From assembly GCA_030390025.1 (NCBI GenBank), contig CM059439.1:63798001-63862000 (forward strand): a stretch of 64,000 bases of DNA, read 5' to 3'. The first letter of the stretch is position 1. The number at the start of each line of letters is the position of its first letter. This document shows, in pieces, positions 4,223-60,120 of the stretch. Both the position numbers and the translations under genes were made by a program. The DNA is from Squalus acanthias (Eukaryota). The notes under the pieces are model-generated. The model made no database searches, had not been told where the DNA came from, and worked only from the letters and a program-made list of their open reading frames with translations.

Positions 4223-7189
4223 TCAGTATCCCGTCCCCGCCTTCTCTCCGTAACCCTTAACCCCTTTTGCCTGTAGAAATATATCTAATTCCCTCTTAAA
4301 TATATTTAATGAGCTGGCGTACACTGCCCTCTGTGGCAATGAGTTCCACAGGTTCACCACCCTCTGAGTGAAGAAATTCCCCCTCATTTCTGTCCCAAAT
4401 GGTTTAGCCCTTATCCTTAAATTATGTCCTCTAGTTCTGTTCTCACCCGCCAAGGGAAACATTCCTTCTGCATCTAGTCTGTCTAGACCTGTCAGAATTT
4501 TATACACTTCTATGAGGTCCCCTCTCAATCTTCTAAACTCCAGTGTGTACATCCCTAAACTACATAGTCTCTCCTCATAGGTCAATCCCGCCATTCCTGG
4601 TATCAGCCTGGTGAATCGCCGCTGCACCCCCTCCATGGCAAGAACATCTTTCCTCAGATGAGGCGACCAAAACTGTACACAGTACTCGAGGTGTGGTCTC
4701 ACCAGTGCCCTGTACAGCTGCAGCAAGGTATCCCTGTTCCTGTATTCCAACCCTTTTGCTATGAAGGCCAGCATACCGTTTGCCTTCTTGACCGCCTGTT
4801 GCACCTGCATGCTCGCCTTCAGTGACTGGTGTACAAGAACACCCAGGTCTCTCTGTACTTCCCCCTCTCCCAATTTATTGCCATTTAAATAATAATTTGC
4901 CCTCCCGTTCCTGCACCCAAGGTGGATAACTTCGCACTTGTCCACATTATAGTGCATCTGCCATTTATCCGCCCAATCACCCAGTCTGTCCAAATCGCTC
5001 TGGAGCTTCCTGGTCTCCTCCTCTGAGCCCACCCCCCCTCCTAGTTTAGTGTCGTCTGCAAATTTGGAAATGCTGCATCCGACTCCCTGATCCAGGTCAT
5101 TAATGTAAATTGTGAACAGCTGGGGACCCAGGACAGATCCCTGTGGTACCCCACTTGTTACTGCCTGCCATTCAGAAAATGAGCCGTTTATTCCAACTCT
5201 CTGTTTTCTATCTGATAGCCAGTTCTCTATCCACGTCAATACTTCCCCCTTTATCCCATGAGCTTCAATTTTCCATGCTAATCTTTTATGTGGGACCTTA
5301 TCGAAGGCCTTTTGGAAGTCCAGGTACACCACATCTACTGGCTCTCCCCCATCTATTTTACCAGTTACTCCCTCAAAAAATTCCAATAGATTAGTCAAGC
5401 ACGATTTACCCTTTGTAAATCCATGTTGACTCTGTCCTATCCTGTCCCCATTTGCTAAGTGCTCCGCTATTTCATCCTTAATGATGGACTCCAGCATTTT
5501 GCCCATAACTGATGTAAGGCTTACAGGTCTGTAATTACCTGCTTTTTCCCTACCCCCCTTTTTAAATAGTGGGGTAACGTTAGCTACCCTCCAATCCATG
5601 GGCACTGTTCCCGAGTCTAATGAATTCTGAAAAATCATACTTAGTGCATCCGCTATCTCTAGGGCCACCTCCTTCAGTACCCTAGGATGCATGTTATCAG
5701 GCCCTGGGGATTTGTCCGCCTTCAATCCCTTTAGCTTCCTTAACACCATATCCTTAGAGATATTGATTTGCGTCAGTTCCTCCTTTGCCAATGTCCCTAT
5801 TTTTCCCGATATCCCAGGGAGGTTTTTTGTGTCTTCCTTCGTAAAGACTGACCCAAAGTATGCATTTAGTTGGTCTGCCATTTCCTTATTTCCCGTTATA
5901 TATTCCCCTGTATCTGACTGCAATGGACCAACTTTGGTTTTCACCAGTCTTTTCCTCTTGATATACTTATAAAAGCTTTTGGAGTTAGTTTTTATATTTT
6001 CCGCCAGCTTGCTTTCGTAAGCTATTTTGCCCCTCTTGATTAAGCCCTTTGTCCTCCTTTGCTCTATCTTAAACTGTTCCCAATCTTCCGCTCTGGCGCT
6101 TTTTTTGGCTATTTTATACGCCCTGTCTTTGGATTTTATGCTGTCTCTAATTTCCCCTGTTATCCACGGTTGAGTCACCTTTTTAGATTTCCTTTTATGC
6201 CAGATTGGTATAAACAATTTTTGCAATTTTGTCATTCTATCTTTAAATGCTTGCCATTGTTTATCTACCTCCAGTCCTCCCAGGAACGTTGTCCAATCAG
6301 ACCTGCTCAGTTCCCGTCTAATGGCATCATAATTCCCCTGGTTTAAATTCAGGACCTTAGTCTCTGAGTCAATTTCTTCGCTCTCCATTTCGAGTGAGAA
6401 ATCGATCATGTTATGATCGCTCTGACCCAAGGGTCCCCGTACAACAAGATTACTAATTAGTCCCTTCTCATTGCACAGTACCCAGTCCAATATAGCCTGT
6501 TCCCGAGTTGGTTCCTCGACATATTGATCCAGATAACCATCCCTTAAACACTCAAGGAATTCCTCCTCCTCATTATTTTTACTGATTAGGCTAGTCCAAT
6601 CTATATGCAAGTTAAAGTCACCTATGATGACAGCTGTGCTCTTATTGCACGCTTCTCTAATTTCCCTCGTGATGCCCTCCCCAACCTCTATTTTACTATT
6701 TGGAGGCCTATATACCACTCCTATTAATGTTTTTCGCCCCTCGCTATTTCTTAGCTCCACCCATATAGATTCTGTATTAACTGAGTTAATATCCTTCCTT
6801 TCAATTGCATTTATCCCCTCTTTTACCAGCAATGCTACCCCTCCTCCCTTTCTTTTTTGTCGATCCTTCCTAAATACTGAATACCCCTGTATGTTAAGCT
6901 CCCAGCCCTGCTCACCCTGCAACCATGTTTCCGTAATCCCAATTAGATCATAATTATTAACCTCTATTTCCACAGCTAATTCATCTACCTTGTTCCTGAT
7001 GCTTCTCGCATTAAGGTATAAAACCCTCAGGCTTTTTTTATGCTCACATTTTTTATGAATTAGTTTGGCCCTTTGTTTTTTGTTCCTCACCCTTTTACCA
7101 TTTATTTCTGTCTGCCTTTCACTTTCCTCTATTTCACTACATAGGTTTCTAGCCCCCTGCCATACTAGTTTAAATGCTCCCGAACTGCT
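4223..7189 (-). CDS. CR1 ORF2: APE-type endonuclease plus reverse transcriptase, uninterrupted
   Basis: EN motifs YLNARS, GITETW, VYRPP, GDFN, SDH; RT motifs [36 protein letters not shown]. The track's 955-aa ORF starts at a GTG (7090). The stop-free frame extends up to 7189, and the first in-frame ATG is at 6409 (residue 228 of the track ORF). Confidence 0.95.
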   Translation of the reverse strand, partial: SSSGAFKLVWQGARNLCSEIEESERQTEINGKRVRNKKQRAKLIHKKCEHKKSLRVLYLNARSIRNKVDELAVEIEVNNYDLIGITETWLQGEQGWELNIQGYSVFRKDRQKRKGGGVALLVKEGINAIERKDINSVNTESIWVELRNSEGRKTLIGVVYRPPNSKIEVGEGITREIREACNKSTAVIIGDFNLHIDWTSLISKNNEEEEFLECLRDGYLDQYVEEPTREQAILDWVLCNEKGLISNLVVRGPLGQSDHNMIDFSLEMESEEIDSETKVLNLNQGNYDAIRRELSRSDWTTFLGGLEVDKQWQAFKDRMTKLQKLFIPIWHKRKSKKVTQPWITGEIRDSIKSKDRAYKIAKKSARAEDWEQFKIEQRRTKGLIKRGKIAYESKLAENIKTNSKSFYKYIKRKRLVKTKVGPLQSDTGEYITGNKEMADQLNAYFGSVFTKEDTKNLPGISGKIGTLAKEELTQINISKDMVLRKLKGLKADKSPGPDNMHPRVLKEVALEIADALSMIFQNSLDSGTVPMDWRVANVTPLFKKGGREKAGNYRPVSLTSVMGKMLESIIKDEIAEHLANGDRIGQSQHGFTKGKSCLTNLLEFFEGVTGKIDGGEPVDVVYLDFQKAFDKVPHKRLAWKIEAHGIKGEVLTWIENWLSDRKQRVGINGSFSEWQAVTSGVPQGSVLGPQLFTIYINDLDQGVGCSISKFADDTKLGGGVGSEEETRKLQSDLDRLGDWADKWQMHYNVDKCEVIHLGCRNGRANYYLNGNKLGEGEVQRDLGVLVHQSLKASMQVQQAVKKANGMLAFIAKGLEYRNRDTLLQLYRALVRPHLEYCVQFWSPHLRKDVLAMEGVQRRFTRLIPGMAGLTYEERLCSLGMYTLEFRRLRGDLIEVYKILTGLDRLDAEGMFPLAGENRTRGHNLRIRAKPFGTEMRGNFFTQRVVNLWNSLPQRAVYASSLNIFKRELDIFLQAKGVKGYGEKAGTGY

Positions 7190-12331: not shown

Positions 12332-13147
12332 TGTGCTATCACTTATTAATGACTTAGATGAAAGGATAGAGAGCCACATATCCAAGTTTGCTGATGACAC
12401 AAAGATAGGTGGCATTGTAAGCAGTGTAGATGGAAACATAAAATTAAAGATATTAATAGCTTAAGTGAATGGGGAAAAACTGTGGCAAATGGATTTCAAG
12501 TGTGAGGTCATCCACTTTGGACTGAAAAAGATTAGAACAGGGTGCTTTCTAAATGGTGAAAAGCTAAAAACAGTGGAGGTCCAAAGAGACTGCAGCTATA
12601 CAAAAGCCCTGGTTAGACCACACCTGGAGTACTGTGTTTGGTTTTGGGCGCCTTAGGAAGGATATATTGGCCTTGGAGGGAGTGCAGTGTAGATTTACTA
12701 GAATGATACCCGGACTCCAAGGGCTAAATTACAAGGAGAGATTACACAAACTAGGGTTGTGTTCCCTGGAATTTAGAAGATTAAGGGGTGACTTGATCGA
12801 AGTTTTCAAAATAGGGTAGGTAGAGAGAAATTATTTCCGCTGGTTGGGGAATCTAGGGCTAGGAGACATAACCTAAAAACTAAAGCCAGGCCTTTCAGGA
12901 GTGAAGTTAGGAAACACTTCTACACGCAAAGGGTGAGAGTTTGGAACTCTCTTCTGCAAACGGCAGTTGATGCTGGGTCAATTGTTAATTTTAAATCTGA
13001 GATTGATAGATTTCAGTTAACCAAAGGTATTAAGGGATATGGGGCAAAGGCGGGTATACGGAGTTAGGTCACAGATCAGCCACGATCTCATTGAATGACG
13101 GAACAGGCTCGTGGGGCTAACTGGCCTACTCCTGTTCCTATGTTCCT
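12332..13147 (+). mobile_element. 5'-truncated, internally deleted CR1 LINE
   Basis: RT remnants (KFADDTK, KALVRPHLEYC, ALEGVQCRFTRMIPG) and 3' tail cctgttcctatgttccta. Confidence 0.92.
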
Positions 13148-14450: not shown

Positions 14451-15583
14451 CCAAGGGTCCACACAAGGGACCGTTAGCTAAAATTAAAGCTCATGGAATC
14501 GACGGCAAATTATTGACCTGGTTAGGCGGTAGAAGGCAGAGTAGGGATAATGGGTATGTACTCGAATTGGAAGGAAGTGACTAGTGGTGTCCCACAAGGA
14601 TCTGTGCTGGGGCCTCAACTATTCACTATATTTATTAATGACTTAGATAACACAATAGAGAGCCAAGTTTGCCAATGACACAAAGACTGGTGGTATAGTA
14701 AGCAGTGTAGAGGGGAGCATAAAATTACAAAGAGGCATTTATAGATTAAGTGAGTGGCCAAAACTGGCAGATGGATTTCAGGTAAGTGTGAGGTCATCCA
14801 TTTTGGACCAAAAAAGGATCGAACCGAGTATTATTTAAAGGCCAGTAACAGTGGAGGTCCAAAGAGATTTAGGGGTCCATGTATACAGATCACTAAAATG
14901 TAGTAGTCAGGTACAAAAATTAATCAAAAAGGATAATGGAATGTTAGCCTTTATAACTAGAGAGCTAGAATATAAAGGGGAGGAAGTCTTGCTACAGCTA
15001 TACAAAGCCTTGGTTAGACCACATCTGGAGTACTGTGTACAGTTCTGGGCACTGCACCTTAGAAAGGATACACTGGCCTTGGAAGGAGTGCAGCACAGAT
15101 ACACCAGAATGTTACCAGGGCTCCAGGGGATAGATTATGAGGAGAGATTACATAAACTAGTTTTCTATTCCTTGGAATAAAGAAGGTTAAGGGGTGATTT
15201 GATTGTGGTTTTTTGGATTTTAAAAGGAATTGATAGGGTAGATAGAAACTTTTTCCGCTGTTTTGGGGGTGGCGGGCGCGGGTGAGTGTAGGACAAGGGG
15301 ACATAACCTTAAAATCAGGGCCAGGCCATTCAGAACATAAGTAAAGAAACACTTCACACAAATGGTAGAAGTGTGGAACGCTCTCCCACAAAAAGCAGTA
15401 GATGCTAGCTCAATTAATAATTTTAAATCTGAGATAGATAGATTTTTGTTAGACAAGGGTACAAAAAGATATGGAACCAAGGCAGGTGGATTGAGTTAAG
15501 ATACAGATCTGCCATGATCTCATTGAATGGAGGAACAGGCTCAAGGGGCTGAACGGTCAACTCCTGCTCCCACGTTCCGATGT
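14451..15583 (+). mobile_element. 5'-truncated, frameshifted CR1 LINE
   Basis: [26 protein letters not shown] and LYKALVRPHLEYCVQFW remnants; 3' end ctcctgctcccacgttccgatgt. Confidence 0.92.
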
Positions 15584-35740: not shown

Positions 35741-36591
35741 GCTCAGGCTACAGGACGATATAGACGGGTTGGTCAGATGGGCAGAACAGTGGCAAATGGA
35801 ATTTAACCCTGAAAAGTGTGAGGTGATGCATTTTGGGAGGACTAACAAGGCAAGGGAATACACAATGAATGGTAGGACCCTAGGAAGGACAGAGGGACCT
35901 TGATGTGCATGTACATAGATCCCTGAAGGCAGCAGGACAGGTAGATAAGGTGGTTAAAAAGGCATATGGGTTACTTATATTCTATGCCTCGGCTAATGAA
36001 GGCAAGAGCAGGGAGGTTATGATGGAGCTGTACAAAACGCTAGTTAGGCCACAGCTGGAATACTGTGTGCAGTTCTGGTCACCACACTATAGGAAGGATG
36101 TGATTGCATTAGAGAGGGTGCAGAGGAGATTCACCAGGATGTTACCTGGGCTGGAGCACTTCAGCTATGAAGAGACTGGACAGGCTGGGGTTGTTTTCCA
36201 TAGAGCAGAAAAGGCTGAGGGGGGACCTGATTGAGGTGTACAAAATTATGAGGGGCATAGATAGGGTAGATAGAAAGGAACTTTTCCCCTTAGTAGAGGG
36301 GTCAATAACCAGGGGGCATAGTTTCAAGGTAAGGGGCAGGAGGTTTAGAGGGGATTTGAGGAAAAACTTTTTCACCCAGAGGGTAGTTGGAATCTGGAAC
36401 TCTCTGCCTGAAAGGGTGGTAGAGGCAGGAACCCTCACAACATTCAAGAAGCATTTAGATGAGCACTTGAAACGCCATAGCATACAAGGCTACGGACCAA
36501 GTGCTGGAAAATGGGATTAAACTAGATAGTGCTTGATGGCCGGCGCAGACACGATGGGCCTCTTTCTGTGCTGTATAACTCTGACTCTATG
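35741..36591 (+). mobile_element. 5'-truncated CR1 LINE (different subfamily from 4131-8078)
   Basis: LYKTLVRPQLEYCVQFWSPHYRKDVIALERVQRRFTRMLPG...RGDLIEVYKIM...QGYGPSAGKWD; tail ctgtgctgtataactctgactctatg. Confidence 0.93.
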
Positions 36592-59542: not shown

Positions 59543-60120
59543 TAAGAACATAAGAACATAGGAACACAGGAACAGGAGTAGGCCATTCGGCCCCTCGAGC
59601 CTGTTCTGCCACTCAATGAGATCATGGCTGATCTGCAACCTAACTCCATAAACCTGCCTTTGGCCCATATCCCTTAATACCTTTGGTTAACAAAAAGCTA
59701 TCAATCTCAGATTTAAAATTAACAATTGATCTAACACCAATTGCTGTTTGAGGAAGAGAGTTCCAAACTTCTACCACCCTTTGTGTGTAGAAGTGTTTCC
59801 TAATTTCACTCCTGAAAGGTTTGGCTCTAATTTTAAGACTATGCCCCCTCGTCCTAGAATCCCCAACCAGCGGAAATAGTTTCTCTCTATTGACTCTATC
59901 TGTTCCCCTTAATATCTTGAAAACTTCAATCAAATCACCTCTTAACCTTCTAAATTCTAGGGAATATAACCCTAATTTGTGTAATCTCTCCTCGTAACTT
60001 AACCCTTGAAGTCCGGATATCATTCTGGTAAACCTACGCTGCACTCCCTCTAAGGCCAATATATCTTTCCTAAGGTGTGGTGGCCAGAACTGCTCACAGT
60101 AGTCCTGGTGTGGTCTAACC
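59543..60120 (-). mobile_element. 5'-truncated young CR1 LINE
   Basis: Open C-terminal ORF2 (ALEGVQRRFTRMISG...KGYGPKAGLWS) and 8-mer tail (plus strand taagaaca taagaaca taggaaca). Confidence 0.94.

Follow-up and report, generated by a model that had tools for sequence, protein, structure and literature searches.

Programmed −1 frameshifting on the heptamer U_UUA_AAC is textbook knowledge for viruses, as at the junction between open reading frames (ORFs) 1a and 1b of coronaviruses. On mammalian ribosomes this heptamer is among the most shift-prone (PMC5009743), and the coronavirus ORF1a/1b and retroviral gag-pol cassettes built on such sites combine the heptamer and its phase with an upstream ORF that ends near the site and a polymerase ORF in the −1 frame (PMC5009743). 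Among retrotransposons lacking long terminal repeats (non-LTR elements), the APE-type Dictyostelium elements TRE5-A and TRE3-A are said to depend on a −1 frameshift to express ORF2 (PMC5911963); mammalian L1, which reaches ORF2 independently of an AUG, and SART1, which relies on UAAUG coupling, make little ORF2 protein from a bicistronic RNA (PMC3894237, PMC5009743, PMC1965478), and the translation of ORF2 in long interspersed nuclear elements (LINEs) has been called an open question (PMC3894237). Here we consider a LINE of the CR1 group, which dominates the retrotransposons in most vertebrates (PMC13343379), on the minus strand of a 64,000-nucleotide stretch of Squalus acanthias DNA (assembly GCA_030390025.1, contig CM059439.1, positions 63,798,001 to 63,862,000 of the forward strand), which we call the window and in whose own coordinates all positions are given. 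From sequence comparison we judge it probable, at roughly 0.82, that ORF2 of CR1 LINEs with an esterase ORF1 is made by −1 programmed frameshifting at U_UUA_AAC, which would yield a fusion of ORF1 with endonuclease and reverse transcriptase.

The junction of this element resembles the viral cassettes in its heptamer and phase, in an upstream ORF that ends near the site and in a polymerase ORF in the −1 frame. It differs from them in belonging to a non-LTR element of the host genome, in having no structure 5–9 nucleotides (nt) downstream, in carrying a run of G at +11 to +15 and in having a stop codon that adjoins the heptamer. TRE5-A and TRE3-A, like CR1, are APE-type non-LTR elements, with a −1 frameshift stated for their ORF2 and proposed for that of CR1, yet they are amoeba elements of the L1 clade and have no esterase ORF1. 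Linear, factor-dependent frameshift stimulators 12–15 nt downstream of the shift site do exist (PMC5009743), and arterivirus nsp1beta/PCBP, cardiovirus and Semliki Forest virus share with CR1 a conserved unstructured motif some 11–15 nt downstream (PMC5009743), although the motif in CR1 is rich in G and has no known trans-acting factor. Whereas L1 and SART1 give a separate ORF2 protein by re-initiation, the window CR1 has a slippery overlap and no in-frame start, pointing to a fusion.

No report of CR1 frameshifting was found in the literature searched, which did not extend to Repbase, to Kapitonov and Jurka 2003 or to the papers of 1997 on CR1 in chicken and turtle, where an earlier remark may stand. 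The word 'frameshift' is absent from the text and supplement of PMC13343379 (the text of which also lacks 'overlap') and from PMC3905857 and PMC2612034; in the available portion of PMC4255032 it is used only for a broken copy, and that of PMC5009743 contains no 'CR1'. The mechanism is not new, nor is it wholly new for non-LTR elements.

The junction and its conservation

On the minus strand, ORF1 ends CAT TTA AAC TAG (7176–7165), which places the heptamer T_TTA_AAC (7174–7168), the candidate −1 shift site, in the X_XXY_YYZ phase and the ORF1 stop TAG (7167–7165; TAA in most sister lineages) directly 3′ of it. ORF2 runs for 988 codons from stop to stop (7189–4223) and encodes an APE endonuclease at approximately 7012–6413 (PF03372, PF14529) and a reverse transcriptase at approximately 5554–4922 (PF00078). 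Upstream its frame is closed by a TAA (7192–7190) that precedes the end of the ORF1 coding sequence by 22 nt, a place that most lineages share and that shifts to only 10 nt in some. From the heptamer the −1 frame is open for 983 codons, and its first Met stands at codon 255, where the first ORF2-frame ATG (6409) lies just past the SDH motif; the Pfam endonuclease match ends at residue 259, or about 6413. The ORF1 stop is followed by a basic linker of about 45 codons (7164–7034), open in −1 and without ATG, whose length and sequence vary between lineages. Within it lies a G-run (7157–7153) at a fixed distance of +11 to +15 after the heptamer, a candidate linear stimulator. The heptamer, the ORF1 end, the closing TAA and the ATG at 6409 are all where an earlier note on this DNA, which had proposed the frameshift, had put them. 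That note had also taken a third-frame ATG to be the only one nearby; the ATG at 7163 is indeed third-frame, but it is not alone, as others occur at 7142 (third frame) and 7101 (ORF1 frame), none of the three being in the ORF2 frame. An in-frame stop-start overlap of the SART1 type was looked for at the junction and is absent, the nearby ATG being third-frame and unconserved. TTTAAAC is not rare by itself: it occurs 19 times in the window, including a second in-phase copy inside ORF2 (6347–6341, minus strand).

The copy in the window is dead, being 5′-truncated and broken in ORF1, and the frameshift claim therefore concerns its family and not the copy. It shares about 99% identity with a CR1 family that is very young and present in high copy number, for which a protein search of genome G000 scored 150 matches out of 68,376 candidates, all of them 99–100% identical. 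The heptamer followed by TAG is present in 30 of 30 fetched family loci, so that the junction is typical of a family that was very active until recently, rather than damage to a single copy. In 22 of the 30 copies the −1 frame is open through all 502 codons examined, and in 25 the first in-frame Met is at codon 255, three of the others stopping earlier and two having a private or frameshift-derived Met; the family has no in-frame AUG upstream of the endonuclease. The junction is also near-identical (86–94% of sampled words) in sequencing runs of six organisms, which suggests close relatives or recent spread between species.

Divergent loci were gathered with four ORF1 queries ending in Leu-Asn, one query ending otherwise, and fetched chosen regions, giving 200 loci of G000 to which the metagenome locus L031 was added; they fall into nine lineages that differ from the window family by up to 45% in esterase DNA. 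With the ORF1 end placed by an anchor that excludes the last 12 ORF1 residues, the heptamer stands at the expected position in 184 of 192 distinct loci, a count in which the queries may favour the amino acids Leu-Asn but not the choice of codon, and the remaining eight have single-base changes in single copies. The codon comparison used real copies, 14 representatives that differ from one another by as much as about 48%. TTA AAC is found in all 14, with no synonymous variation, and of the 12 third codon positions that are invariant among 147 columns, four belong to the last four codons of ORF1. The codon is fixed in one of 11 invariant Leu columns, the terminal TTA, and in one of three invariant Asn columns, the terminal AAC. 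The first T of the heptamer is constant while the codon that contains it varies between His, Gly, Ala, Asp and Tyr; after the heptamer, ten representatives have TAA and four have TAG. As a rough figure that assumes independence, three wobble bases would be fixed by chance with a probability of (8/143)^3, about 2e-4. A control is provided by the heptamer inside ORF2 at 6347–6341, which is lost in three of three other lineages, as against 184/192 for that at the junction, in a small sample where 4 of 11 copies were kept (open for at least 330 codons). By these comparisons, the heptamer is conserved beyond amino-acid constraint.

The same regularity is seen in the frame of ORF2. In ten multi-copy sublineages, defined by at least two copies of the modal linker length, the linkers measure 113, 113, 128, 134, 158, 167, 176, 185, 185 and 239 nt, and every one of these lengths puts ORF2 in −1; the linker is open in 120 of 130 modal-length copies. 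A shuffle test of the open linkers gave chance values of 0.0025–0.54, 11 of 12 being under 0.12, and carries little weight as the copies were chosen as intact. The earlier note had named an in-frame AUG ahead of the endonuclease, synonymous drift of the Leu-Asn codons and an ORF2 not consistently in −1 as findings that would speak against its proposal. None of these emerged, the window family having no such AUG, the Leu-Asn codons being fixed and ORF2 lying in −1 in ten of ten multi-copy sublineages, and its −1 reading is supported: the junction appears to be a real, deeply conserved recoding signal, from which we infer the shift itself.

The ORF2-frame stop 22 nt before the ORF1 end is also conserved, its wobble T being invariant across Asp, Ala, Thr and Leu codons, and it may guard against out-of-frame entry from upstream. 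Most lineages have such a stop either 22 or 10 nt short of the ORF1 end, which confines entry into ORF2 to the junction or later.

Distribution beyond the window family

Nearly all full-length ORF1 proteins of cartilaginous fish end in Leu-Asn, while those of teleosts, which we take to be ZfL2-like, do not. The same ending occurs in an alligator protein (P0075) and in a cluster containing a duck protein, birds being represented by protein ends only. In the consensus library of the PMC13343379 supplement, the heptamer followed by a stop has 23 matches. By eye, 18 of them, from 12 species, lie at the ORF1 end of CR1-group elements or immediately 5′ of the endonuclease. The species are elephant shark, three rays and sharks plus dogfish, bowfin, halosaur, coelacanth, bullfrog, bearded dragon, alligator and crocodile (five of the names were checked and the others come from abbreviations; the halosaur entry is labelled Crack). 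Of the other five matches, two fall in CR1 5′ regions and three are unrelated. When the library was searched instead from the DGLH codons, with anchors partly drawn from the earlier matches so that the test is not independent, 11 entries covered the 3′ region of ORF1, ten of which end in the heptamer and one of which is cut off.

TGA-C is a readthrough-type context, and it recurs among more distant relatives. A metagenome scan returned one close relative, L031, and 79 distant loci; viral contigs and prokaryote genome contigs were scanned as well and no relatives were found in them. In 17 of 36 endonuclease-bearing metagenome esterase LINEs (L031 included), ORF2 is open in frame 0 straight after the ORF1 stop; 16 of these 17 have TGA, 13 have TGA-C, and many of the linkers contain Met. 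The TGA-C loci, which belong to L034–L106, end ORF1 in TGA-CTA or TGA-CCA (L036, L040, L042, L050, L060 and L105, for example), and these junctions are candidates for programmed stop-codon readthrough. The frame-0 loci lend indirect support to fusion as a strategy.

Rival routes to ORF2 and the search for a stimulator

Several results weigh against −1 frameshifting as the route to ORF2. Among the ten single-copy sublineages, five are in −1 and five are not, the latter being, we infer, old copies with indels. An in-frame Met occurs in 7 of 12 representative linkers, at unaligned positions, so that re-initiation at an AUG is possible in those lineages, although 5 of the 12, the window family among them, have none. 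In mammals, translation of L1 ORF2 does not require the AUG of that frame (PMC5009743, PMC1965478), and the lack of an AUG alone therefore forces no frameshift. The library search was motif-led and had no denominator, and its consensus reading frames were taken unchecked.

To these is added the failure to find a structural stimulator. At the window junction no 3′ structure was better than shuffles (z = 0.15 and −0.07), the junction folds of 14 lineages ranged in z between −1.10 and +2.09 and had no stem in common, and a duplex scan found no common long-range pairing partner. The classical pseudoknot or hairpin starting 5–9 nt downstream is missing; the earlier note, too, had identified no strong pseudoknot there, and folding of the window and 14 lineages bears it out. 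Nine of the 14 lineages, the window family not among them, match a two-tier G-quadruplex pattern. What is conserved downstream is linear: G is found at +11, +12, +13, +14 and +15 in 14, 13, 13, 13 and 11 of the 14 representatives, and a GG at +18/19 is likewise kept. Read in the ORF2 frame, the G-run codes for Gly as well. Most library entries, though not all, have a comparable run after the motif; it is missing or weak in SquAca_CR1-17a and AmiCal_CR1-1. The 3′ untranslated region (UTR) was considered as a pairing partner for the run and rejected, as pairing occurs only in the window family and that stretch of the 3′ UTR has a hairpin of its own.

Part of this evidence would suit termination and re-initiation, by which ribosomes restart near the ORF1 stop in the ORF2 frame, on a non-AUG codon or a linker Met, and produce a free ORF2 protein. 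L1 ORF2 tolerates other sense codons in place of its AUG (PMC1965478), a restart beside the stop would likewise keep the linker open and in a single frame, and the Met codons in more than half of the linkers and the lack of a stimulator in the fold, stem and long-range scans point the same way. What re-initiation leaves unexplained is that seven bases are fixed as X_XXY_YYZ while the stop and the preceding residue vary. Nor does the closest ATG, at 7163, offer a start: its frame is wrong, L009 carries a mutation in it and most sister lineages lack it. There is no SART1-type overlap, and the five linkers without Met offer no AUG at all. We consider this route improbable.

A different use for the conserved bases is hinted at by the library, where two shark CR1 entries, SquAca_CR1-3 and SquAca_CR1-18, carry TTTAAAC followed by TA in the 5′ region ahead of ORF1, a further point against frameshifting in that it leaves room for a non-translational role. 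The motif could be kept as a TATA-like internal promoter or a protein-binding site, or the Leu-Asn end, which is invariant at the protein level, could be under constraint, with ORF2 being made from a shorter transcript or by internal entry. Protein constraint, however, cannot fix wobble bases, a DNA motif has no reason to hold codon phase directly before a stop, and a shorter transcript would still be without an AUG in the window family. Clusters of read starts near the junction (L013 positions 1798 and 1851, one run each) did not recur, reads from mixed copies being a weak test of the matter. Such a role, alone and in place of frameshifting, seems to us very unlikely.

The remaining way of joining the two ORFs is to change the RNA before it is translated, by splicing or by polymerase slippage that adds one base. 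The stop TAG of the window family resembles a splice acceptor, and genomic copies fused by one more upstream G exist (L224, L231–L236). Ten of the 14 representatives have TAA as the stop, however, so that no AG acceptor is conserved. The RNA itself was represented by two raw runs from an organism carrying the family, at a depth of about 80–100 each, with reads that mix copies and strands. They contain no splice joint across 2.9 kb spanning the junction, where coverage is unbroken, and at 80% likeness neither the heptamer nor the TA of the stop shows a joint, indel or substitution above a threshold of 2 in 100 and three reads, while differences between reads are present at the codon before the heptamer and at the third base of the stop. 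The reads thus argue against splicing or slippage at the few-percent level, and say little on transcript starts. The fused copies arise from changes in homopolymer length, in two lineages where a G-run chances to precede the heptamer, and the run takes other lengths too. We give an altered RNA hardly any credence.

In the copies concerned, L224/L238 and L231–L236, one more G in the run just 5′ of the heptamer fuses ORF1 and ORF2 into a frame of up to about 1,290 codons. We rejected them as proof of a working fusion, the difference being a homopolymer indel.

If −1 frameshifting does operate at the junction, most ribosomes would halt at the ORF1 stop and release the ORF1 protein, while a minority would slip back by one base, with tRNA-Leu and tRNA-Asn on the heptamer, and then read on. 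The product would be an ORF1-linker-endonuclease-reverse transcriptase protein of about 1,300 residues, made at a low fixed ratio like that of Gag-Pol to Gag. The linear G-run 11–15 nt downstream might conceivably act as the stimulator, bound by a protein or by the ribosome with no local fold, and the adjacent stop codon could perhaps aid slippage. In the standard tandem-slippage model Leu-Asn is kept at the shift, and the fusion would read EHLN-LVWQG. The transframe peptides expected by the earlier note need amending in this respect: its EHLK version would require slippage of a single tRNA, and its EHFK version is a conceptual −1 translation only.

A broader proposal, which we put forward tentatively and hold to be rather doubtful, is that a jawed-vertebrate CR1 cassette of U_UUA_AAC, adjacent stop and structure-free G-run stimulator predates the split between sharks and bony vertebrates and makes a Gag-Pol-like fusion of ORF1, endonuclease and reverse transcriptase, that distant esterase LINEs fuse the same parts by UGA-C readthrough, and that recoding, not re-initiation, is the rule of this branch.

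Should the frameshift be real, its conservation would answer the question of ORF2 translation for the CR1 group, in a form testable with a reporter of about 100 nt. The CR1 enzyme would be redefined as a fusion with ORF1, which would affect annotation, the way CR1 retrotransposition assays are designed and current thinking about recruitment of the reverse transcriptase to its own ribonucleoprotein. The junction may also add a natural frameshift stimulator that works without local RNA structure.

The element copy in the window

The CR1-type copy occupies 8078–4129 on the minus strand, as delimited by blastn against the intact copies L013 and L237, and its truncation lies 36 nt into ORF1. The ORF1 remnant (8078–7165, minus strand) consists of two ORF pieces that cover a Cys-rich N-terminal part and a C-terminal SGNH/GDSL esterase (PF13472, E=1.7e-11); it goes out of frame at a G-run (7769–7761), where it has two extra bases relative to L013. 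In intact family copies ORF1 comprises 316 codons from stop to stop. The 3′ UTR (4222–4129, minus strand) has a stable stem-loop (fold z = −2.47 against shuffles) and a short tandem-repeat tail, with no poly(A).

We assign the element to the CR1 clade by its domain content and its by-eye likeness to CR1-named entries of the PMC13343379 supplement. The traits of the clade are present: APE and reverse transcriptase domains in ORF2, an SGNH esterase ORF1, a 3′ stem-loop and a tandem-repeat tail without poly(A). In vertebrates, ORF1 of both CR1 and L2 is of the esterase type (PMC13343379). The closest named relatives of ORF1 are from sharks and rays. A protein of the same kind, P0009, is a shark-type CR1 ORF1 58% identical to the window family; its NCBI record bears the name of a bacterium, probably owing to contamination. 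Elsewhere in the window are four older 3′ fragments of ORF2 from related LINEs, 64–67% identical, at 12590–13145, 14480–15570, 35883–36416 and 59548–60120.

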